The notes beneath the pieces are model-generated. The model saw only the letters and a list, made by a program, of their open reading frames with translations. It was not told the origin of the DNA and did not search any database. Shown in pieces: positions 28,139 to 40,569 of a stretch of 64,000 nucleotides of DNA. Position numbers and translations under genes: made by a program. Each line of letters begins with the position of its first letter. Positions within the stretch are counted from its first letter, which is position 1. The stretch lies in the NCBI GenBank assembly GCA_964291675.2, contig OZ219866.1:416001-480000 (forward strand). The letters run 5' to 3'. Origin of the DNA: Alphaproteobacteria bacterium (GTDB lineage Bacteria > Pseudomonadota > Alphaproteobacteria > MPNO01).

Positions 28139-29248
<1,110 letters not shown>

Positions 29249-29264
29249 CCGCCGTTCGCGGGGC

Positions 29265-30317
29265 ATGGCGGGCGGGGTGAGGCGGGTCCGCGCGGCCGCG
29301 CTTGAATCCTTCACAGCCCAGATCTTCGCCGCCGCCGGCACCCCGGCGGCGGATGCGGCGACCGTCGCCGAGGTGCTGGTCTGGGCCAATCTGCGCGGCA
29401 TCGACAGCCACGGCGTGCTGCGCGTGCCGGGCTATGTCGGGCGCATCGCGAGCGGCGAGTTCAACCCGAAACCCGATATCTCGGTCGTGGCCGAGCTCCC
29501 GGCGGCGACGCTGATCGACGCCGACCGCGCGTTCGGCCCGGTCGGCATGTCGCGCGGCATGGACATCGCCATCGCCAAGGCGCGCGAGGCCGGGGTGGGG
29601 GTGTGCATCGTCCGCCGGGTGACCCACATGGCGGCGATCGGCTGGTTCGCGCTGAGGGCGGTCGAAGCCGGGATGATCGGCCTCGCCTTCGGCTCCTCGC
29701 GGCCCAACATGGCCTATCACGGGGCGCGGGCGCGCGGCGTCGCCACCAGCCCGATCGCCATCGCGGTGCCGGGGGAGGGCGCGCCGGTGCTGCTCGACAT
29801 GTCGACGTCGGAGAGCTCGATGGGAAGGATCATGCTGGCGCGCGACGCGGGCACGCCGCTGGAGCCCGGCTGGGCGCTGACCGAGGACGGGACGCCCACC
29901 ACGGACGCCGACGAGGCGCGCATGCTCACCCCGCTCGGCGGGGCCAAGGGGGCGGGGCTCGCGCTGATGTTCGAGTGCCTCGCCGGCATCCTCGTCGGCC
30001 ACCCGCTGATCGCCACCGCCATCGGGCCGGACGCCGAGACGCGGCACAGCCAGAACGGGTTCGCGCTCGCCATCGACATCGCCGCCTTCGCCGAGCCGGA
30101 ACGCTATCGCAGGGACATCGCCGCGCTGGCGGGCGCGCTCAAGTCGCTCCCCGTCGCCGAGGGGCATGACGAGATCCGCCTGCCGGGCGAGCGCGGCGAA
30201 CGCACCATGGCGGAGCGGCTGGAGAGCGGCGTGCCGCTGCCGGCCGGCACCTGGCGCCGCCTCGCCGAGATCGCCGACGGGTTCGGCATCGCCATGCCGC
30301 CCGTCGTCGAGCGCTGA
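29265..30317 (+). CDS. Ldh_2-family (malate/L-lactate/ureidoglycolate-type) oxidoreductase
   Basis: GIDSHGV, LDMSTS, GGAKGAGL, RLPGE. Confidence 0.9.
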   Translation: MAGGVRRVRAAALESFTAQIFAAAGTPAADAATVAEVLVWANLRGIDSHGVLRVPGYVGRIASGEFNPKPDISVVAELPAATLIDADRAFGPVGMSRGMDIAIAKAREAGVGVCIVRRVTHMAAIGWFALRAVEAGMIGLAFGSSRPNMAYHGARARGVATSPIAIAVPGEGAPVLLDMSTSESSMGRIMLARDAGTPLEPGWALTEDGTPTTDADEARMLTPLGGAKGAGLALMFECLAGILVGHPLIATAIGPDAETRHSQNGFALAIDIAAFAEPERYRRDIAALAGALKSLPVAEGHDEIRLPGERGERTMAERLESGVPLPAGTWRRLAEIADGFGIAMPPVVER

Positions 30318-30320
30318 GCC

Positions 30321-30530
30321 TCACTCGCGGTCGCCGCGCTCGCTGCGATAGGCGAGCCGCATCAGCCCGATCCCGAGCGCGAGGCTCGCGACCACGCCGA
30401 GCACCATGGCGATCAGCCCCCAGACGCCGATCGGCGCATCGCCCGCCACCCGCCACATCCAGACCGCGGCGACGACCGCCCCCGCCAGCAGCGCGCCGAG
30501 CAGGATGGAGAGCAGCAGGGTGCGGTTCAT
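30321..30530 (-). CDS. Small two-TM membrane protein
   Basis: Two hydrophobic helices ending GLMRLAYRSERG. Confidence 0.65.
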   Translation of the reverse strand: MNRTLLLSILLGALLAGAVVAAVWMWRVAGDAPIGVWGLIAMVLGVVASLALGIGLMRLAYRSERGDRE

Positions 30531-30548
30531 CGCGGTCCCGGGCGCCTC

Positions 30549-31616
30549 TCAGGCGATCAGCGCGTTGCCGGCGAAGCGCTCGCGCCAGCGCGGCAGCACG
30601 TCGGGGTTGAACACGTTGTCCGGCACCTCGCCCCTGAGCGCGGCGAGCACCGCCTCGGCCGCCCACTGGATGCCGGGGCCGAGCCCGCCGCCATGGTTGT
30701 GCGAGATCATGTGCGGCGACAGCAGCACCTCGTTCCCCATGTCGAGCAGCCTGGAGTTGCGGTCCATCGGCTCGTCGAGAAACACGTCGAGCGCGGCGCC
30801 GGCGATCTCGCCCGCCGCGATGGCATCGGCCAGCGCCGCCTCGTCCATCGTGCCGCCGCGCGAGGTGTTGACGAACAGCGCCGTCCGCTTCATCGCCCGG
30901 AACTGGGCCGCGCCCATCATGCGGCGCGAGGTCGGATTGAGCGTCGGGTGCAGCGAGACGATGTCGGAATCGGCGAGCAAGGTGTCGAGATCGACCCGTT
31001 CGACCCCGTACTCGGCGAATTTCTCTTCCTCCACGAAGGGGTCGCAGACGATCAGCCGGACATGCCAGGGCTTGAGCAGCTCCACCATGCGCCCGCCGAT
31101 GCGCCCGAAGCCGACAATGCCCACGGTGAGCCCGGCATAGCCGTCCTCGTCGCGGCGGCCGAGATAGGTGCCGATCAGCGAGTCGTGCTTCCAGCCGCCG
31201 GCCTTGACGTGGGCGTCCTTCTCCCGGTTGCGCTTGAGCATGGTGAGGATCATCGCCATCGCGCCCTCGGCGACGCCGCCCCAGTTGGCCTGGGTGGGGG
31301 CGTGGGTCACCAGCACGCCGAGATCGGTGGCCGCATCGACGTCGATGTCGTCGGTGCCGACGGTGCACTTGGCGATGATGCGGAGCCGCTGCGCGCCCTC
31401 GATGATGCGCCGGTTGACCGGTGCGCTGCGGATCGAGGTGCCGGTCATGGCGACCGCTTCCGCGGCGCTGGCCGCCATGTCGTCCTCATAGACGCAGCCC
31501 GGGACATGCCATGCCTCGTCGCCGAATGTGAGCCGGCAGCCCGCCTCTTCCATCCGGCGGTTGCTGCGCCCCTCCAGATCGGCGTTGGCGAAGACGAAGA
31601 CGGTGGGCTCGGACAT
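30549..31616 (-). CDS. D-isomer-specific 2-hydroxyacid dehydrogenase
   Basis: GIVGFGRIG, VNTSRG, ALDVF..EP, SPH. Confidence 0.92.
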   Translation of the reverse strand: MSEPTVFVFANADLEGRSNRRMEEAGCRLTFGDEAWHVPGCVYEDDMAASAAEAVAMTGTSIRSAPVNRRIIEGAQRLRIIAKCTVGTDDIDVDAATDLGVLVTHAPTQANWGGVAEGAMAMILTMLKRNREKDAHVKAGGWKHDSLIGTYLGRRDEDGYAGLTVGIVGFGRIGGRMVELLKPWHVRLIVCDPFVEEEKFAEYGVERVDLDTLLADSDIVSLHPTLNPTSRRMMGAAQFRAMKRTALFVNTSRGGTMDEAALADAIAAGEIAGAALDVFLDEPMDRNSRLLDMGNEVLLSPHMISHNHGGGLGPGIQWAAEAVLAALRGEVPDNVFNPDVLPRWRERFAGNALIA

Positions 31617-31661: not shown

Positions 31662-32525
31662 TCAGTCGAACAGGAACCGGAACGCGCCGTTCTCCCGCCG
31701 CAGCCGGCAGGGCTCGAAATGCGCCGGCAGCAGGAGCGTGTCGCGCTCGGCGGCCCGCTCGAAGAGCGCGCGGCGGGTGGCGGCGGCGGTCGGCCGGTGT
31801 TCGCAGGCGCGGCTGTTCCAGCCCGGGTGGCGCGCCTGGATCGGGTGATGGAACACGTCGGCGGCGATCAGCCCCTCCTCGCCCTCGGAGCAGATCCGGA
31901 TATTGACCTGGCCCGGGGTGTGGCCGGGCGCGGGCTCGAAGCGTATGCCGTCCTCGACGACGTGATCCGCGGCCACGAGATCGGCGAGCCCGGCATCGAG
32001 AACCGGCTTCACGCTGTCCTCGTAGACGTTGACGTACTGCCCGTCGCCGCCCGCGTGCTTGGCCTCCAGCGAGTCGAGGTCGGCGGCGGTGAACACGTAG
32101 CGCGCGTTGGGGAAGGTGGGCTCCCAGCGCCCGTCCACGAGGCACGTGTTCCAGCCGACATGGTCGACATGGAGGTGGGTGATCAACACGAGGTCGATGT
32201 CGTCGGGCGCGTAGCCCGCCGCCGCCAGGTTCTCCAGCCAGGGCCACTGGCCGTCCGTCCAGTAATCCCGCCGGCGCCCCGGCTTGTCGTTGCCGACGCA
32301 GGTGTCGATCAGGATGGTGCGTTCGCCCGCGCGGAACACGTAGCTCTGCATGCAGGATTCGAGCAGCCAGCGCGCCTCGTCGAAGAAGCGCGGCATCAGC
32401 CAGCCCCGCTCGCGCTCGAAATCGCCGGGCGTGGAATCCGGGTACATCGCCCCGGGATCGAAGATCGGCGTGTCGTCCTCGAGCACCCGGGCGAGCTCCA
32501 GCCTGCCGATGGTCACCGTCGCCAT
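31662..32525 (-). CDS. MBL-fold metallo-hydrolase
   Basis: THLHVDHVGWN, PGHTPG, PAHF. Confidence 0.92.
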   Translation of the reverse strand: MATVTIGRLELARVLEDDTPIFDPGAMYPDSTPGDFERERGWLMPRFFDEARWLLESCMQSYVFRAGERTILIDTCVGNDKPGRRRDYWTDGQWPWLENLAAAGYAPDDIDLVLITHLHVDHVGWNTCLVDGRWEPTFPNARYVFTAADLDSLEAKHAGGDGQYVNVYEDSVKPVLDAGLADLVAADHVVEDGIRFEPAPGHTPGQVNIRICSEGEEGLIAADVFHHPIQARHPGWNSRACEHRPTAAATRRALFERAAERDTLLLPAHFEPCRLRRENGAFRFLFD

Positions 32526-32555
32526 TGCATCCTCCGACCGAGCCTTCCCCCAAGT

Positions 32556-32667
32556 CGTCTTGGCCGGCCCCCGGATCAAGTCCGGGGGTGATCCGGGCAT
32601 CTCTCTCCGCAAGTCCAGCCTGTCGCCCGGAAGCCGCTTCATCGCCGGAGCAAGTCGGGCCATGACG
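32556..32667. repeat. REP family B degenerate inverted pair
   Basis: CGTCTTGGCCGG...GATCCGGGCATC and CAAGTCGGGCCATGACG. Confidence 0.65.
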
Positions 32668-32718
32668 CGGCGGGGGCGCCGCGCAAATGGATAGAAACTT
32701 GGGGAGTACGACACTAGC

Positions 32719-33579
32719 ATGGGATTTTACGATCGCGCGAACGGCAAGACGATGTCTCACCCTTGCGCCGCGCCGCATGCGGTCACCGCGGCCGAGTTCG
32801 ACTGCGAGGTGATCCGCAACGATGCGGTCAACGCCGAGTACATGCATATCGTGGCGACCGCCGAGCCGCTCGCGACATCGATCCGGGCCGGCCAGTTCTT
32901 CCACATGCTGTGTCCGAAGGGCGGGGCGAACGCCCCGTTCTTCCGCCGCCCGATGAGCGTCTACCGGGCCGACCCGGAGCACGGCACGGTCGCCTTCCTC
33001 TACAAGGTGACCGGCAGCGGGACGCGGGCGCTGGCGACGCTGGCGCCGGGCGACCGGCTCGACTTGTTCGGGCCGCTCGGCGTCGGCTTCGCGCTGGAGC
33101 CCGGGTGGCGGCGCATCGTGGTGGTCGGGCGCGGGGTGGGGCTTGCGACGCTCGCCCCGCTGGCCGAGCTCGCGGCGGCGAGCGGGGTGGGCGTGACGGC
33201 GGTCCTGAGCGCGCGCTCGCCGGCGGTGATGATGTCGGCCGACCGCTTCCAGGCGATCGGCGCCGAGACGATCGAGGTCACCGACGCCGAGGGGACCAGC
33301 GGCCCCGCCCGGCTGGAGCGCACCCTGCGCGGGCTGATCGCGGAAGGCCGGGCGGATGCGTTCTTCACCTGCGGCTCCAACCGGCTGCTGCTGCTGCTCC
33401 AGCGCCTCGGGCGCGAGTTCTCCATCCCCGGCCAGGTCGCGCTGGAGCAGCAGATGGCCTGCGGGCTCGGCATGTGCTTCTGTTGCGTGCGCGAGTTCCG
33501 CGTGGGCGACGGCGTCGCCCACCGCCGGGTGTGCTGGGACGGTCCGGTGTTCGACCTTCAGGAGGCGATCTCTTGGTAG
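32719..33579 (+). CDS. pyrK: Dihydroorotate dehydrogenase electron transfer subunit
   Basis: RRPMS, GPLG.GF, MACGLGMCFCC...VCWDGPVF [2Fe-2S] motif. Confidence 0.92.
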   Translation: MGFYDRANGKTMSHPCAAPHAVTAAEFDCEVIRNDAVNAEYMHIVATAEPLATSIRAGQFFHMLCPKGGANAPFFRRPMSVYRADPEHGTVAFLYKVTGSGTRALATLAPGDRLDLFGPLGVGFALEPGWRRIVVVGRGVGLATLAPLAELAAASGVGVTAVLSARSPAVMMSADRFQAIGAETIEVTDAEGTSGPARLERTLRGLIAEGRADAFFTCGSNRLLLLLQRLGREFSIPGQVALEQQMACGLGMCFCCVREFRVGDGVAHRRVCWDGPVFDLQEAISW

Positions 33580-34520
33580 ACATGCGCGTCGAGATCGGCG
33601 GGGTGGCGATGGCCAACCCGGTAATGCCGGCCTCCGGAACCTTCGCCGACGGGCTCGACAAGGCGGTCGATTTCGAACGCCTGGGGGCCATGGTGATCAA
33701 GACCATCACCCGCGAGCTCCGGGTCGGCAACGCGCTGCCCCGGGTCTGCGAGACGCCGGAGGGGATGCTGAACTCGATCGGCATCCCGTCCAAGGGGATG
33801 GACTATTTCCACGCCGAGACCCTGCCGCTCTATGCGCGCTACTCGACGCCGCTGGTGGTCAGCATCTCGGCGCCGACGGTGGCCGGCTTCGCCAGCCTCG
33901 CCGAAGAGGTGAGCCTGCCGGGCGTCGCCGCGATCGAGATCAACATCTCGTGCCCCAACCTGGAAGCCGACGGCCAGGCCTTCGCCAACTACACCGAGTC
34001 CACCGAGCGCGCCGTCGCGGCGATCCGCCGGCGCACCTCGCTGCCGCTCTGGGCCAAGCTCTCGCCCAACGTCACCGACGTCGCCGAGATCGGCCGCGCG
34101 GCGGAGGCCGCCGGCGCCGACGCGCTGGTGGTCGCCAACACCTTCCTCGCCATGGCGGTCGACATCGAGAGCCAGCGTCCCAGGCTCGGCAGCGTCACCG
34201 GCGGGTTGTCCGGCCCCGCGATCCGGCCCATCGTGGTCCGCATGACCTATCAATGCGCGCGCGCGGTCGACATCCCGGTGATCGGCTGCGGCGGGATCGC
34301 GACGGCGGACGACGCGATCGAGTACATGCTGGCCGGCGCCAGCGCGGTCCAGGTGGGAACCGTCACCTTCCTCCACCCGACGGCGATGATCTCGGTCCTC
34401 GACGGCATCGAGGATTACTGCCTGCGGCGCGGCTATGCGCGCGTGACCGACCTCGTGGGCGCGCTCTCGGTCGAGGAGGCGGACGAGACCGACATGGAAT
34501 GGGTCGACCCGCTGCGATGA
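33573..34520 (+). CDS. pyrD: Dihydroorotate dehydrogenase family 1B catalytic subunit
   Basis: PASGTF, NSIG, NISCPN catalytic Cys, KLSPN, GGLSGPAI; TTG start 7 nt after GGAGG. Confidence 0.93.
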   Translation: MVDMRVEIGGVAMANPVMPASGTFADGLDKAVDFERLGAMVIKTITRELRVGNALPRVCETPEGMLNSIGIPSKGMDYFHAETLPLYARYSTPLVVSISAPTVAGFASLAEEVSLPGVAAIEINISCPNLEADGQAFANYTESTERAVAAIRRRTSLPLWAKLSPNVTDVAEIGRAAEAAGADALVVANTFLAMAVDIESQRPRLGSVTGGLSGPAIRPIVVRMTYQCARAVDIPVIGCGGIATADDAIEYMLAGASAVQVGTVTFLHPTAMISVLDGIEDYCLRRGYARVTDLVGALSVEEADETDMEWVDPLR

Positions 34521-35794
34521 GCGAAACCGCCCTCCAGCCCGCCCGGGAAGAGCTGCGCACGCTCGCCGTCGAGACCTTCGACACGCTGCGCCGGGCCACC
34601 GCCGCCAGGCAGGGCGTGTCGCGCGAGAGCTTCGGCGCGGGCGAGAACGCGGCGCTTGAGATCCTGGTCGACCTCGCCCGCCGGTTCGGGCTCGAGACCG
34701 GCACCGACCGGGCCGCAAACCTGCTGATCTCGCTGCCCGGACAGGCGCGGGCGACGCCCTATATCGCCTGCGGATCGCACATGGATTCGGTGCCGGAGGG
34801 GGGCAATTTCGACGGCGCCGCCGGGGTGGTCGCGGGGCTGCTGGCGCTGGTGCGCGCGCGGATGGAGGACGCAAGGCCGAGACACCCGGTCCGGGTGATC
34901 GCGCTGCGCGGCGAGGAGAGCGCCTGGTACGGCAAGGCCTGCGTCGGGTCGAGCGCGCTGTTCGGCCGGCTGCAGAAGGCCGACCTCGCCTCGGTCCACC
35001 GCGACGGGACGGGCACGCTGGGCGAGGCGATGAAACGCGAAGGCGCCGCGGTCGAGGCGATCGAGGCGGGCACGCCGCTGGTCGACCCGGCCGACATCGC
35101 GGGCTATGTCGAGCTGCACATCGAGCAGGGTCCGATCCTGGTCGCCGACAGCCTGCCGACCGCCGTGGTGACCTCGATCCGCGGCAATCTGCGCCACCGC
35201 CGCATCCGCTGCATCGGCGAGGCGGGACATTCGGGCGCGGTGCCGCGCGGGCTCAGGAACGATCCGGTCATGGCCGCCGCCGCGCTGATCCATGCGCTCG
35301 ACAACCACTGGCGGGACTGGCTGGAGCGGGGGCACGACATCGTGGTGACCACCGGCATCGTCGAGACCGACGCCCGGTCGCATTCGGTCTCGCGCATCGC
35401 CGGCGAGGTCGATTTCAGCTTCGAGGTGCGCAGCGAGGACCGGGCGACGCTGGAGGGGTTCTACGAGCTCATGCGGGGCGAGTGCGACCGGATCGCCGAC
35501 GAGCGCCGGGTGATGTTCAACTTCGACCGCAGGGTCGACGCCCCGCCCGCGGTGATGGACCGGCGCTGGGTCGACAAGCTGCTGGCGCATGCCCGCGCGC
35601 TGTCGCTACCCGAACGCACGATTTTGAGCGGCGCCGGCCACGACGCGGCGCTGTTCGCCGCGGCCGGAATCCCGTCGGCGATGATCTTCATCCGGAACCA
35701 CAACGGCTCGCACAACCCGAACGAGGCGATGGACATCGACGACTTCCTCAAGGGCGCCGACCTGCTCTACCGCGCGCTGATCGACCCGCCGTGA
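34517..35794 (+). CDS. M20 hydantoinase/carbamoylase-family amidohydrolase
   Basis: [40 protein letters not shown]. Confidence 0.92.
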
Positions 35795-36846
35795 CGGGCG
35801 AGCGCATCGAGATCGCGCGGCCGGACGACTGGCACCTCCATCTCCGCGACGGCGCGATGCTGCACACCATCGTCGGCTTCTCGGCGGCGGTGTTCGGCCG
35901 CGCCATCGTGATGCCCAACCTGGTGCCGCCGGTGCGCGTCCCGGAGGAGGCCGAGGCCTATCGCGCGCGTATCCGGGCGGCGCTCCCCGACGGCCATCCG
36001 TTCGAGCCGCTGATGACCGCCTACATGACCGACAGCGCCGATCCGGCGGATATCCGGGCCGGGTTCGAGAGCGGCATCTTCCACGCCGTCAAGCTCTACC
36101 CGGCCGGCGCCACCACCAACTCCGAGATGGGGGTGACGCGCATGGCGGCGATCCGCCCGGTGCTGGCGGAGATGGAGAAGATCGGCATGCCGCTCCTGGT
36201 CCATGGCGAGGTCGCCGATCCCGAGGTCGACGTGTTCGACCGCGAGGCGGTCTATATCGAGCGCGTGCTCGAGCCGATGCGGCGCGGCTTCCCGGGGCTC
36301 AGGGTGGTGCTGGAACACGTGACCACGGTCGATGCCGTCGAATACGTGCGCGCCGCCGAGAGCGGGCTCGCGGCCACGATCACCCCGCATCACCTGATGA
36401 TCAACCGCAACGCCATCTTCCGCGGCGGGCTCCGCCCGCACATGTATTGCCTCCCCGTCGCCAAGCGCGAGCGGCACCGCCTGGCGCTGCGCGCGGCCGC
36501 GGTCTCGGGCGATTCGCGGTTCTTCCTCGGCAGCGATTCCGCCCCCCATCCGCGGCGCGACAAGGAGGCCGATTGCGGCTGCGCGGGAATCTTCAACGCG
36601 CCCAACGCGCTGCAATGCGTGGCGCAGGTCTTCGACGAGGAGGGCGCGCTCGACCGGCTCGAAGGTTTCGTGTCCCGCGCGGGCGCGGAATTTTACGGAA
36701 TGGCGCCGAATTCCGACCGCATCGTCCTCGAAAAGGGGGTAGTTTCCGAGGCGCCCCGGGAGCGGGTGGGGGTCGCGGACCACGCGATCAGGGTGTTCGA
36801 CCCCGGCACGCCGGTCTTTTGGCGGATCGTCTCCGGCCTCCGGTGA
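35791..36846 (+). CDS. pyrC: Dihydroorotase (E. coli type)
   Basis: [34 protein letters not shown]. Confidence 0.96.
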
Positions 36847-36881
36847 GCCAGCCGGGCGCGTGCGACAGAGCGGAGGGACAG

Positions 36882-37577
36882 ATGCTGCCGACGGCGTTCC
36901 CGGACGAGGCGCAGGTCGCCGAGATGACGGCGCGGATGCTGATCGAGGTCGAGGCGGTACGCTTCCGCGCCGAGGACCCCTACCGCTTCACCTCGGGCTG
37001 GGCGAGCCCGGTCTATATCGACTGCCGGCGGCTGATCTCGTTCCCGCGGGTGCGCCAGACGCTGATGGATTTCGCCGCCTCGGCGATCGTCCGCGAGGTC
37101 GGGTTCGAGACCATCGACGCCGTCGCCGGGGGCGAGACCGCCGGCATCCCCTTCGCCGCCTGGATCGCCGACCGGCTGATGCTGCCCATGCAGTATGTCC
37201 GCAAGCAGGCCAAGGGGTTCGGCCGGGACGCCCAGATCGAGGGCGATTTCGAGGCCGGCTCCCGCGTGATCCTGGTCGAGGACCTGACCACCGACGGGCA
37301 GAGCAAGATCCGCTTCTGCCAGGCGCTGCGCGAGGCGGGCGCCATGGTCAATCACACCTTCGTGATCTTCCACTACGACATCTTCCCGCAGACCCACGAG
37401 CTGCTGGAGCGGATGGACATGAAGATGCTCTCGCTCGCCACCTGGTGGGACGTGCTCGCGGTGTGCAAGAAGCACGCCTATTTCGACGCCGCCACGCTGG
37501 ACGAGGTCGAGAGCTTCATGAACGACCCGGTCGCCTGGTCCGCCGCGCATGGCGGCGCCTCGGAGCTCGCGGGCTGA
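36882..37577 (+). CDS. pyrE: Orotate phosphoribosyltransferase
   Basis: [32 protein letters not shown]. Confidence 0.93.
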
Positions 37578-37767
37578 CCCGCCGAACGATGCGGGCCGAA
37601 TAACGCTGCCTTTCCTGTATTCAGCCGGCGACAAGCTCTGTAAATTGCCCCGGATTGAGGATGCCCGCACCGCCCGGGACGGCTCGGCTGCGCCCTGGGG
37701 GGATTCGCGTTTGCGCGGAGGCGCGGAAATCTCTCATTATGCGCCAGTCCCAGGAGGGAGACCGAAG

Positions 37768-38796
37768 ATGACAGGGAAAATCAGGCCGCTCGCGCTCGCG
37801 GCGGCGGTATCGGCGGCGGTGGTGCTCGGCAGCGTCAGCGCCCAGGCGGCGACCAAGATCCGGCTCACGCTCGACTGGATTCCGCAGTCGACGCACGGGC
37901 TGATCTTCATCGCCCAGTACGAGGGCTACTACAAGGCCGAAGGCCTCGACGTGAAGATCGACGAAGGCCGCGGCTCGGCCGACGCGGTCAAGAAGCTGGT
38001 CAGCGGCACCCACGATATCGGCCTCGCCGACATCAACGCCTTGATCCAATACAACGCCAAGAACAAGGGCGCCGAGATCAAGAGCGTCATGATGATGTAC
38101 GAGCAGCCGCCCTTCTCCATCTTCGTCTTGAAGAAGTCGGGCATCACCCATCCCAAGCAGCTCGTCGGCAAGACGCTGGGCGCGCCGGTGTTCGATGCCA
38201 GCTACAAGCTGTTCCCGGCCTTCGCCAAGGCGATCGGCATCGACCCGAACGCGGTGAAGAAGAAGAACATGGACCCGCGCCTGCGCGAGCCGATGCTCAT
38301 CCGGGGCGAGGTCGACGCGATCTCGGGGCACGTGTTCTCCTCGATGCTCAACCTCAAGGCGGCCGGCGTCAAGGAAGAGGACGTCACCTTCTTCATGTAC
38401 GGCGACCACGGCATGGAGTCCTATGCCAACGGCGTTGCCGTGCGCCCCGACTTCATCGCCAAGAACGCGGACGCGGTGCGCGGCTTCGTGCGGGCGACGA
38501 TCAAGGCGACCCGCGACATGGTGCAGAAGCCCCAGCTCGCGCTCGATTCGGCCAAGAAGTTCTCGCCACTGCTCGTCGAGTCGGTCGAGGCCGACCGGCT
38601 GCGGCTCGGCATCAAGTGCTGCGTGCTGACGCCGAACGTGCGCAAGAACGGCTATGGCGGCATCGACATGGCCCGGCTGCAGCGCTCGATCGACCAGGCG
38701 GCGGACGCCTACGGCATCAAGGAGCCGCCGAAGGCCGCCGACATGTGGCTCGACGGCTTCCTGCCGCCGCAGTCCGAACGCTTCATCCACAAATAG
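37768..38796 (+). CDS. NMT1/THI5-like ABC substrate-binding protein
   Basis: Signal peptide, LTLDW, GYYKAEGLDV, GRGS. Confidence 0.9.
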   Translation: MTGKIRPLALAAAVSAAVVLGSVSAQAATKIRLTLDWIPQSTHGLIFIAQYEGYYKAEGLDVKIDEGRGSADAVKKLVSGTHDIGLADINALIQYNAKNKGAEIKSVMMMYEQPPFSIFVLKKSGITHPKQLVGKTLGAPVFDASYKLFPAFAKAIGIDPNAVKKKNMDPRLREPMLIRGEVDAISGHVFSSMLNLKAAGVKEEDVTFFMYGDHGMESYANGVAVRPDFIAKNADAVRGFVRATIKATRDMVQKPQLALDSAKKFSPLLVESVEADRLRLGIKCCVLTPNVRKNGYGGIDMARLQRSIDQAADAYGIKEPPKAADMWLDGFLPPQSERFIHK

Positions 38797-38803
38797 GGTG
38801 CCC

Positions 38804-38826
38804 GGGGCGGGCCGCGTGCCCGCCCC
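38804..38826 (+). other. Intercistronic hairpin after the SBP gene
   Basis: GGGGCGGG-CCGCGTG-CCCGCCCC. Confidence 0.5.
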
Positions 38827-38849
38827 CACCCCTTCCTTCGAGACCGTCG

Positions 38850-39656
38850 ATGGCATTCATCGAGATCGACGAGATCGACCTCACCTACCGCAACAGCGCG
38901 GGCGACGAGGACGATGCCGGCACGCTGGCGCTGCAAGGCGCCAGCCTGACCATGGAACGCGGCGATTTCATCTCGCTGGTCGGGCCGAGCGGCTGCGGCA
39001 AGTCGACCCTGCTCAAGGTGGTCGCCGGGCTGATCCGGGCCAATAAGGGGCGGGTATCGGTCGCCGGCCAGGTGGTCGACCAGCCGCTCAAGATCGTCGG
39101 CATGGCGTTCCAGAACGCGACCCTGCTGCCGTGGCGCTCGACGCGCGAGAACGTGCTGCTGCCGATGGAGATCGTCGAGCCGCATCGGAAGCAGTTCCGC
39201 AGGGAGAAGGCGAAATACGAGGCCATCGCGGACGAGCTGCTGGCCACCGTCGGTCTCGACGGGTTCGGCGACCGGGCGCCCTGGCAGCTCTCGGGCGGGA
39301 TGCAGCAGCGCGCCCAGCTATGCCGCGCCCTGGTGCACGAGCCCGACCTGCTGCTGCTCGACGAGCCGTTCGGCGCGCTGGATGCGTTCACCCGCGAAGA
39401 GCTCTGGGACGTGCTCCAGGCGCTCTACATGAACCGGAAATGCACGGTGATGCTGGTCACCCACGATCTGCGCGAGGCGGTCTACCTGGCCGACAAGGTC
39501 TACGTGATGAGCGCGAGGCCGGGCCGGGTGATCCTCGAGCGCGACATCGAGATCGAACGGCCGCGCAAGCTGGAGCACATGTACCAGCGCGAGACCGTCG
39601 AGCTGGTCCAGGAGCTGCGCCACCACATCAACATCGCGAGAACCGACGATGAGTAG
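38850..39656 (+). CDS. NitT/TauT-family ABC ATP-binding protein
   Basis: GPSGCGKST, LSGGMQQR, LLLDEPF. Confidence 0.94.
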   Translation: MAFIEIDEIDLTYRNSAGDEDDAGTLALQGASLTMERGDFISLVGPSGCGKSTLLKVVAGLIRANKGRVSVAGQVVDQPLKIVGMAFQNATLLPWRSTRENVLLPMEIVEPHRKQFRREKAKYEAIADELLATVGLDGFGDRAPWQLSGGMQQRAQLCRALVHEPDLLLLDEPFGALDAFTREELWDVLQALYMNRKCTVMLVTHDLREAVYLADKVYVMSARPGRVILERDIEIERPRKLEHMYQRETVELVQELRHHINIARTDDE

Positions 39657-40431
39657 GAAAACCCTCGAGATTCTGTCGCCGTGGATCGTCACGCTGATCG
39701 TCATCGTCATCTGGGAGGTCGGCGTGCGCGCGTTCGACGTGCCCGCGGTGGTGCTGCCGACCGCGAGCGCGTCGTTCTACGCGATATGGGAGTGGCGCGA
39801 GGGGCTGTGGCACAACGCGATCCCGACGCTGGTGGCGACGCTGCTGGGGTTCGGCATCGCGGTCGTGTTCGGCATCGTGATGGGGGTCTTCATCGGCATC
39901 TCCAAGCCGGTCTATGCCGCGCTCTACCCGCTGCTGGTCGCCTTCAACAGCATCCCCAAGGTAGCCATCGTGCCGATCCTGATGGTGTGGTTCGGGATCG
40001 GGCTGACCACGGCGACGATCACCGCCTTCATCCTCTGCTTCTTCCCGATCGTGGTGAACGTCGCGGTCGCGCTGGCGACCATCGAGCCGGAGCTGCGCGA
40101 CGTCTTGCGCGCGCTCGGCGCGCATGAGCGCGACATCGTCATCAAGGTCGGGATCCCGCGCTCCCTCCCCTATCTGTTCGCCTCGCTCAAGATCGCGATC
40201 ACGCTGGCCTTCGTCGGCGCGGTGATCGCCGAGACCGTGGCGGGCGGCGACGGGATCGGCCATCTGATGCTGGTCGCCAGCTCGAACTTCAACATGGCGC
40301 TGATGATCGCCGGGCTGATCGTGATCGCCGCCATGGCGATCGGCATGTACGCGATCTTCGCGGTGCTCGACCGGCGCTTCACCGGCTGGGCGACGCGCGG
40401 CGACATCCAGTACGCCACGGCGGGCGGCTAG
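39649..40431 (+). CDS. NitT/TauT-family ABC permease
   Basis: PKVAIVPILMVWFG, TM segments. Confidence 0.93.
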   Translation: MSRKTLEILSPWIVTLIVIVIWEVGVRAFDVPAVVLPTASASFYAIWEWREGLWHNAIPTLVATLLGFGIAVVFGIVMGVFIGISKPVYAALYPLLVAFNSIPKVAIVPILMVWFGIGLTTATITAFILCFFPIVVNVAVALATIEPELRDVLRALGAHERDIVIKVGIPRSLPYLFASLKIAITLAFVGAVIAETVAGGDGIGHLMLVASSNFNMALMIAGLIVIAAMAIGMYAIFAVLDRRFTGWATRGDIQYATAGG

Positions 40432-40569
40432 CCGCCGGCTTGCAACGGATCAAGCGGTGTGATACCAAGCCCTGCCTTCGAGAACCGGGCTCCGAACCGG
40501 GCGTCGCGATAGCCGAAATCGCGCTGTATTTCAAAGAGTTGCCGCCGATACGGTCAGGGTTGGAAAGAC

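Follow-up and report, generated by a model that had tools for sequence, protein, structure and literature searches.

The reductive fermentation of orotate in Clostridium oroticum involves an orotate reductase working with NADH, a dihydroorotase and a ureidosuccinase (EC 3.5.1.7), the reductase being a class 1B dihydroorotate dehydrogenase (DHODH). Both ureidosuccinase and this reductive route of orotate breakdown were already described at the level of enzyme activity in the 1950s. The DHODHs of class 1B are NAD-linked and reversible, whereas those of class 2 pass their electrons to quinone and are effectively one-way. Here we describe five genes located in a stretch of 64,000 nucleotides (the window) from an Alphaproteobacteria bacterium (contig OZ219866.1, positions 416,001 to 480,000), where pyrK, a class 1B pyrD, the gene of an M20 amidase, a type II pyrC and pyrE follow each other in this order on the + strand. 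An earlier note based on the sequence of the window had interpreted them as an operon for the reductive breakdown of orotate, with the amidase as a candidate ureidosuccinase: the observation of the operon is confirmed here, and the breakdown interpretation is partly supported. The same three reactions as in C. oroticum, in the same order, can be proposed from the genes of the operon. Unlike the C. oroticum pathway, which is known in the form of activities in an anaerobic Firmicute, the module described here is carried mostly by aerobic Proteobacteria; it has PyrE in its core and, in the window's genus, is joined to biosynthetic genes.

The reductive uracil/thymine pathway (PreA/PreT or PydA, dihydropyrimidinase, and beta-ureidopropionase) follows a similar scheme, in which the base is reduced, the ring opened and the carbamoyl group removed by enzymes homologous at each step; in the window, however, the reductase is a true dihydroorotate dehydrogenase with orotate-binding residues, and the ring-opening enzyme is a dihydroorotase. 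A uracil-type counterpart of the window architecture was identified in Candidatus Galacturonibacter soehngenii (locus L086, 5065–9227), where PreA (574 bits) and dihydropyrimidinase (478 bits) are accompanied by an M20 enzyme only about 29% identical to that of the window. The host of this locus belongs to the family holding the classical orotate fermenter. In the Firmicute operons of the pyrK-pyrD-(pyrF)-pyrE type (L097 and L098), pyrK and pyrD are likewise followed by pyrE, but no M20 gene is present, and the PyrD proteins, which are 38–39% identical to that of the window, form the outgroup in the PyrD tree.

The five genes of the operon are as follows:

32719–33579, + strand: pyrK-like gene, FAD/NAD-binding 2Fe-2S electron-transfer subunit of class 1B DHODH (286 amino acids; PF10418, 45 bits)
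33582–34520, + strand: pyrD, catalytic subunit of class 1B DHODH (312 amino acids; NF005574, 341.3 bits, cut-off 269)
34517–35794, + strand: M20 hydantoinase/carbamoylase-family amidase, candidate N-carbamoyl-L-aspartate amidohydrolase (425 amino acids; TIGR01879, 276.3 bits, cut-off 204)
35791–36846, + strand: pyrC, type II (homodimeric) dihydroorotase (351 amino acids; TIGR00856, 409.5 bits, cut-off 292.95)
36882–37577, + strand: pyrE, orotate phosphoribosyltransferase (OPRT) (231 amino acids; NF001729, 395.5 bits, cut-off 245)

These genes were called from the sequence between 32500 and 37800 and from profile scans of the translations (Pfam, NCBIfam). Since the G+C content of the window is about 70%, long spurious open reading frames are abundant, and the real frames were chosen by their third-position G+C. 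The genes and their order are those given in the earlier note; the overlaps between stop and start codons which it had placed at all the junctions from pyrK to pyrC were found at two of the three, namely between pyrD and the M20 gene (ATGA, 34517–34520) and between the M20 gene and pyrC (GTGA, 35791–35794). The TAG stop codon of pyrK ends at 33579 and the ATG of pyrD lies at 33582, giving a 2-nt spacer, and a gap of 35 nt separates pyrC from pyrE. The genes are presumably cotranscribed. The dN/dS ratios calculated with two close relatives range from 0.07 to 0.17 for all five genes, which indicates purifying selection; that of the M20 gene (0.13) is similar to those of its neighbors.

Enzymes encoded by the operon

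The assignment of pyrD to family 1B, already made in the earlier note, holds well: the protein scores above the NF005574 cut-off, the gene adjoins that of a PyrK with a 2Fe-2S domain, and the sequence was aligned to the DHODB of L. lactis (1EP1) with an E value of 8e-67. The motifs MLNSIG, NISCPN, KLSPN, and GGLSG are all kept, and with them the residues that correspond to the catalytic cysteine and the orotate-binding asparagines. The PyrK protein does not reach the PyrK equivalog cut-offs, its best NCBIfam match being NF000799 (127.7 bits, below the cut-off of 314). The products of pyrC and pyrE both exceed the equivalog cut-offs for type II dihydroorotase and OPRT, respectively.

The M20 amidase exceeds the family cut-off of TIGR01879, and no equivalog cut-off of NCBIfam is reached, the scores being 195.3 bits with the AllC model TIGR03176 (cut-off 597.75) and 282.3 bits with the ErtE model NF058540 (cut-off 520). 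Its best solved relatives are AllC (1z2l, E value 1e-45) and an L-N-carbamoylase (3n5f, E value 3e-45), which share its metal ligands and catalytic glutamate but are only about 30–35% identical to it. Residues H88, D99, E133, E134, H201, H399, Q204, and R305 are invariant in all 32 M20 sequences of the group linked to pyr genes, so that the two-metal site and the catalytic glutamate are kept. By motif, Q204 and R305 can be equated with Gln196 and Arg291 of RrCbetaAA, which bind the carbamoyl group and the carboxylate according to a structural study (PMC10952681). R222, N224, R226, R244, and R293 are nearly always present in the linked clade, where position 292, which is occupied by Asn in the wider family, carries Ser or Ala (S292 in the window protein) and is followed by Arg. 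The alignment suggests that R222, N224, R226, R244, S292, and R293 may line the substrate pocket. With the catalytic residues intact, the amidase and PyrD look competent.

ErtE is also an M20 carbamoylase that acts on an acidic N-carbamoyl-L-amino acid, N-carbamoyl-L-glutamate, which is one carbon longer than carbamoyl-aspartate, and its partner ErtD is a cyclic amidohydrolase. R226 is common to the linked M20 sequences and the ErtE-type enzymes, but the score of the window protein lies far below the ErtE cut-off, most of the pocket positions differ, and a true ErtD/ErtE pair is encoded elsewhere in the genome. This pair (G000:C2:2169199-2171771, locus L138) matches the hydantoin-5-propionate amidohydrolase (721 bits) and N-carbamyl-L-glutamate amidohydrolase (525.4 bits) models above their equivalog cut-offs, which points to ergothioneine utilization.

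The statement in the earlier note that ureidosuccinase is poorly assigned to genes is borne out by the databases and by the searchable literature. In the NCBIfam release of June 2026, which contains the ErtE model, there is no model for ureidosuccinase activity, and the window protein is named only "Zn-dependent hydrolase" or family amidase; public sources name the family "beta-ureidopropionase / N-carbamoyl-L-amino-acid hydrolase." No assignment of ureidosuccinase to a gene was found in the searchable literature, from which the term itself is absent; subscription journals and supplements lie outside it, and earlier work may therefore exist. The parts of PMC4016543 and PMC1940265 examined contain nothing on this cluster or on EC 3.5.1.7, and the matches to "3.5.1.7" in an orphan-enzyme survey correspond to other EC numbers.

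Linkage of the amidase to pyr genes

Sixteen M20 homologs (54–91% identity) were aligned, this alignment was used to fetch 80 loci from species-representative genomes, and the window proteins were compared with these loci by tblastn. The 24 loci with the closest M20 sequences (L011–L031, L051, L055, and L064; 45–92% identity) come from Alpha-, Beta-, and Gammaproteobacteria and one Acidobacteriota metagenome-assembled genome (MAG), and show two gene orders, the second being exemplified by L012 (M20-pyrE-pyrK-pyrD). With the exception of L030, each of these loci has the M20 gene next to one or more pyr genes. The pair pyrK-pyrD is found there in 17 of the 24 loci (by tblastn, a pyrK-like gene precedes pyrD in 16) and a pyrE-like gene in 20, while a clear dihydroorotase gene is present in six, as type II pyrC in five of them and as a type I gene directly after the M20 gene in L027 (Pseudomonas sp. 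ANT_H12B; NF006688, 659 bits, cut-off 535). L026, with an untyped Amidohydro_1 gene, is a seventh possible case. The synteny survey proposed in the earlier note thus ties the amidase to pyrK-pyrD, pyrE, and pyrC in many taxa, and the association with an orotate reductase and a dihydroorotase expected of a ureidosuccinase was found in the form of gene linkage, not of function. In L024 (9233–10272, Amylibacter sp. MAG), the type II pyrC of the cluster is split into two frames, corresponding either to a pseudogene or to a long-read assembly error.

Among the other 56 loci, pyrK-pyrD was detected only in L085 (Paenibacillus), and three others, among them the uracil-type locus L086, showed weak PreA-like matches. 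In a FastTree phylogeny of 91 M20 sequences, the 32 linked sequences lie on one side of a branch with a support of 96; since this group was defined by the list of loci and an identity of at least 45%, not by linkage alone, the support shows its coherence and is not an independent proof. All nine window-type PyrDs detected among 30 relatives adjoin an M20 gene (eight within a fetched locus, and that of G026 by its coordinates). Transporter genes adjoin many of the clusters (MFS transporters of the aromatic-acid type in eight loci, TRAP DctM in five, and TctC in four, and an ABC transporter in the window and its two nearest relatives), as do regulator genes of the XRE (10 loci) and LysR (four loci) types. 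The isolates carrying the cluster include Roseomonas aerilata DSM 19363, Roseibium marinum DSM 17023, Celeribacter sp. SCSIO 80788, and Pseudomonas sp. ANT_H12B.

The Paenibacillus locus (L085, 755–12134, P. senegalensis JC66) shows a dihydroorotase gene, a phosphopentomutase gene, an ABC transporter and an M20 gene, followed by pyrK-pyrD-pyrF. Its M20 protein belongs to a different subfamily (28% identity), and no other class 1B pyrD was found in the genome. A carbamoylase and pyrKD may have become linked independently here.

In all 10 cluster-bearing genomes tested outside the window's order, a class 2 pyrD scored above the cut-off, and the module is therefore not the biosynthetic route in these strains. 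Since the class 2 enzyme is effectively one-way, a second, NAD-linked DHODH makes most sense there if the flux runs from orotate to dihydroorotate. Other pyr genes are also found twice: Roseomonas and Celeribacter carry a second pyrE, one copy being in the cluster and the other elsewhere, two type II pyrC genes are distributed in the same way in the genome of L019, and Amylibacter has an intact type II pyrC elsewhere in addition to the split copy in the cluster. We propose that in most of its carriers the module is accessory, horizontally spread, and equipped with a transporter of its own.

It is very likely that the amidase is part of a pathway centered on orotate, dihydroorotate, and carbamoyl-aspartate. 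In the scheme we envisage, PyrK/PyrD would interconvert orotate and dihydroorotate with NAD(H), the reductive direction being possible, unlike in the case of the quinone-linked class 2 enzyme; the dihydroorotase would open the ring of dihydroorotate to give N-carbamoyl-L-aspartate, and the M20 enzyme would hydrolyze the ureido bond to yield L-aspartate, NH3, and CO2, a step that would make the route irreversible and release both nitrogens. PyrE would provide a second exit, from orotate to orotidine monophosphate (OMP). The pool of carbamoyl-aspartate, dihydroorotate, and orotate would thus have two exits, one to aspartate and ammonia via the M20 enzyme and one to OMP via PyrE. With only a housekeeping PyrC and a class 2 PyrD, imported carbamoyl-aspartate or dihydroorotate could take either exit; the addition of PyrK/PyrD would also bring orotate to the aspartate exit, and that of a dihydroorotase would increase the capacity. 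None of the other metabolites in this pool is an N-carbamoyl amino acid, and carbamoyl-aspartate is therefore the proposed substrate of the M20 enzyme in every variant. Judging from the genes and their neighborhoods, we give roughly even weight to the proposal as a whole, i.e., a module handling these three compounds in which the M20 enzyme is the N-carbamoyl-L-aspartate amidohydrolase (ureidosuccinase, EC 3.5.1.7); the identification of carbamoyl-aspartate as the substrate, taken alone, seems somewhat more probable than that. The substrate and the direction of the flux are what we infer from this arrangement.

Pyrimidine genes of the window genome and alternative readings

No class 2 pyrD was found in the window genome (G000, 93.7% complete), in any of the 12 genomes of its genus, most of which are 99–100% complete, or in genera g4 and g5, while 16 genomes in the relatives set, which numbers 31 with G000, have this gene. 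The search for a separate class 2 pyrD suggested by the earlier note was thus negative here and positive in the cluster-bearing genomes from outside the order. The pyrE of the operon is the only OPRT gene in the window genome, and its pyrC is the only type II gene and the only dihydroorotase gene above an equivalog cut-off. Two type I "pyrC_multi" matches are not clear dihydroorotases, one passing only the broad TIGR00857 cut-off and the other passing the allantoinase model. Since the cell has no other pyrE and no other clear pyrC, the operon must also serve biosynthesis in this genome and cannot be catabolic alone. Of the breakdown operon postulated in the earlier note, with PyrC working in reverse and PyrE in salvage, what stands is therefore the pyr-linked module, and what has to be given up here is its purely catabolic character. 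In the window's genus, the operon probably serves both biosynthesis and breakdown or salvage.

The earlier note had considered the case where the operon pyrD would be the only one in the genome; two further genes of the DHOD family were identified. The first is part of a second pyrK-pyrD-like pair (G000:C2:2747727-2749528; locus L091, 7727–9528, − strand) located beside alaS and recA. In the clade to which it belongs, NISCPN is replaced by NISCPT, MLNSIG by IIQSIG, and GGLSGP by GGLVSP, so that two orotate-binding asparagines are lost. This clade is kept in nearly all the relatives of families f1–f4, and the pair co-occurs with class 2 pyrD in all five relatives lacking the M20-linked copy; none of the nine loci of this second type among the relatives adjoins an M20 gene. 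In the PyrD tree, the window copy lies among the M20-linked sequences and the second type forms its own clade (support 99), the backbone between the two being unresolved. In view of the altered motifs and the co-occurrence with class 2 pyrD, the second pair is probably not the housekeeping DHODH, which its wide conservation could suggest, and probably encodes a DHOD-like reductase acting on another substrate.

The other gene encodes a class-1A-like DHOD of 292 amino acids with an intact N-L-S-C-P-N motif, and lies on the smaller contig directly after the genome's only aspartate carbamoyltransferase gene (pyrB; TIGR00670, 264.5 bits) and before a LysR regulator (G000:C1:817430-819436, locus L092). 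It was found in all 12 genomes of the genus and in none of the 19 other relatives, and may have replaced the class 2 pyrD that was lost. In G024 and G025, both a class 2 pyrD and the 1A-like gene are missing.

Several points weigh against the proposed breakdown route. With pyrE and the clear pyrC of the genome both confined to the operon and class 2 pyrD missing, an efficient carbamoyl-aspartate hydrolase produced together with biosynthetic enzymes would drain the de novo pathway. The scarcity of clear dihydroorotase genes (6 of the 24 closest loci) is another of these points, and so is the fact that the chemistry does not explain why a breakdown route should include PyrE. The residues typical of the linked M20 clade are partly common to a neighboring clade without any pyr linkage, and a strict search for columns specific to the linked clade yielded only two (G132 and L148). 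The clade is also rare in the phylum, where it was detected in 4 of 400 other sampled genomes, all four carrying a pyrE-M20 pair. Lastly, 10 genomes have the M20-pyrE-like pair only, and eight of these, including four that are 100% complete, have no class 1B PyrD (E ≤ 1e-40), which implies that the amidase can do without orotate reduction. Breaking orotate down by reduction is thus, at most, one of the uses of this enzyme and cannot account for the clade as a whole; being found alone, the M20-PyrE pair must make sense alone.

A plain biosynthetic operon, in which PyrK/PyrD would work anabolically with PyrC and PyrE to form OMP, the M20 enzyme being a passenger or a safety valve for excess carbamoyl-aspartate without a part in nutrient breakdown, is the first alternative to be weighed. 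The loss of class 2 pyrD throughout the genus and in g4 and g5, the confinement of pyrE and the clear pyrC to the operon, the situation in G024 and G025, and the absence of any regulator adjoining the operon in the window speak for it, as does the fact that the window PyrD is the only class 1B copy in the genome which has both a PyrK partner and canonical motifs. It leaves unexplained, however, why the M20 clade and pyrK-pyrD occur in all 10 genomes already having a class 2 pyrD, and why transporters and regulators stand beside those clusters. Two further points speak against it: the M20 gene is under purifying selection with translational overlaps on both sides, and the other plausible anabolic DHOD adjoins the only pyrB in all 12 genomes of the genus. 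On balance, we consider this explanation unlikely.

According to a second alternative, the M20 enzyme would act on another ureido or N-acyl compound (e.g., N-carbamoyl-beta-alanine or another N-carbamoyl-L-amino acid), the PyrE-like protein would be a phosphoribosyltransferase for another base, and the tie to pyr genes would reflect shared regulation or an unknown pathway. This would account for the pairs lacking class 1B PyrD (8 of 10 genomes) and for the four matches in the phylum sample; it is in line with the public name of the family and with the broad substrate range often shown by characterized relatives (PMC10952681). Of seven linked PyrE-like proteins from other loci scanned with NF001729 (cut-off 245), three pass (262, 295, and 389 bits) and four fall just below (197–240 bits), but the best match of all those scanned is the alphaproteobacterial OPRT model. 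PyrD, PyrC, and PyrE all bind orotate, dihydroorotate, or carbamoyl-aspartate, the last of these is the sole N-carbamoyl amino acid among them, and the window PyrD keeps its orotate-binding residues; the true uracil-type cluster of L086, with PreA, dihydropyrimidinase, and an M20 enzyme, has a different composition. Another substrate therefore seems improbable to us. That an unrelated amidase landed by chance between pyrD and pyrC is most improbable, since the genes overlap and the linkage, in one or the other of two gene orders, recurs in three classes of Proteobacteria and in an Acidobacteriota MAG, even if non-pyr genes flank the M20 gene in the 56 remaining loci of the wider family.

The proposal of a module handling orotate, dihydroorotate, and carbamoyl-aspartate can be taken one step further. 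In the window's genus, a horizontally acquired breakdown module might have been welded to pyrE and the clear pyrC, of which the cell has no other copies, after the loss of class 2 pyrD, resulting in a two-way pyrimidine operon with the amidase as a drain setting the flux of the de novo pathway. With a reversible NAD-linked DHODH and a ureidosuccinase, one set of genes could then serve either to make OMP or to degrade orotate and carbamoyl-aspartate to aspartate and ammonia. The M20-PyrE-like pair found elsewhere might be a two-exit unit for scavenged intermediates of the pyrimidine pathway, which would be a so far unrecognized class of nutrients. This extension is speculative, and we regard it as doubtful.

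Neighboring genes, expression and significance

The following features were identified downstream of pyrE:

37768–38796, + strand: NMT1/THI5-like (NitT/TauT family) ABC substrate-binding protein (PF09084, 142 bits; only weak matches to the SsuA/taurine family)
38616–39656, + strand: ABC transporter ATPase (limits of the open reading frame, the start being probably near 38800–38900; PF00005, 110 bits; matches to taurine/nitrate-type models all below the cut-off)
39649–40431, + strand: ABC transporter permease (PF00528, 90 bits; kept in L011 and L022)
40505–40523, + strand: first terminator-like hairpin past pyrK (weak, from a consensus scan only)

The ABC transporter (37768–40431) is possibly the uptake system of the operon; its substrate-binding gene adjoins the operon only in L011 and L022, the two closest loci, and ATP synthase genes follow it in the window. 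Upstream of pyrK, a metallo-beta-lactamase-fold gene and a 2-hydroxyacid dehydrogenase gene lie on the opposite strand. The longest open reading frame of the former (31662–32720, − strand) would begin inside the start codon of pyrK (32719, + strand); since its homologs match only from about residue 60, the true start is probably near 32560, leaving about 160 bp for a divergent promoter region. Genes for a zinc alcohol dehydrogenase, an Ldh_2-family dehydrogenase and a D-2-hydroxyacid dehydrogenase occupy positions 28139–31616 of the window, and the last of these and the metallo-beta-lactamase-fold gene are found beside the operon in the closest relatives only. No Rfam match at the gathering score was obtained in the whole window, hence no thiamine pyrophosphate or PyrR element before the ABC transporter or pyrK. 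Between 32300 and 40700, the promoter scan gave no sites and the terminator scan gave four, against 2.2 expected.

Contigs covering pyrD/M20, M20, pyrC, pyrE, and the transporter were found in the RNA-library run X22, including one at 34086–34793, about 90% alike, which spans the pyrD/M20 junction; as contigs alone do not demonstrate a single transcript and DNA may be present in an RNA library, they give just a hint that relatives express the region. Much of the operon and of the transporter (window 32000–40500; runs X22, X1, and X2) is covered by contigs 90–100% alike in sponge-metagenome data labeled as a metatranscriptome. Several runs labeled as sponge metagenomes contain 0.2–0.3 of the words, and X22, X1, and X2 were those aligned.

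If the M20 enzyme is indeed the N-carbamoyl-L-aspartate amidohydrolase, the orphan EC 3.5.1.7 would be closed with a gene for an activity known for more than half a century, and thousands of annotations as "Zn-dependent hydrolase" would be put right. It would also be shown that bacteria take up orotate, dihydroorotate, and carbamoyl-aspartate on purpose as nutrients, and there would be a reason why Proteobacteria endowed with a class 2 DHODH retain a second enzyme that is NAD-linked. The cluster offers a specific clade of proteins for testing, with cultured carriers. In the window's lineage, a breakdown module would have taken over, or would share, an essential step of pyrimidine biosynthesis.

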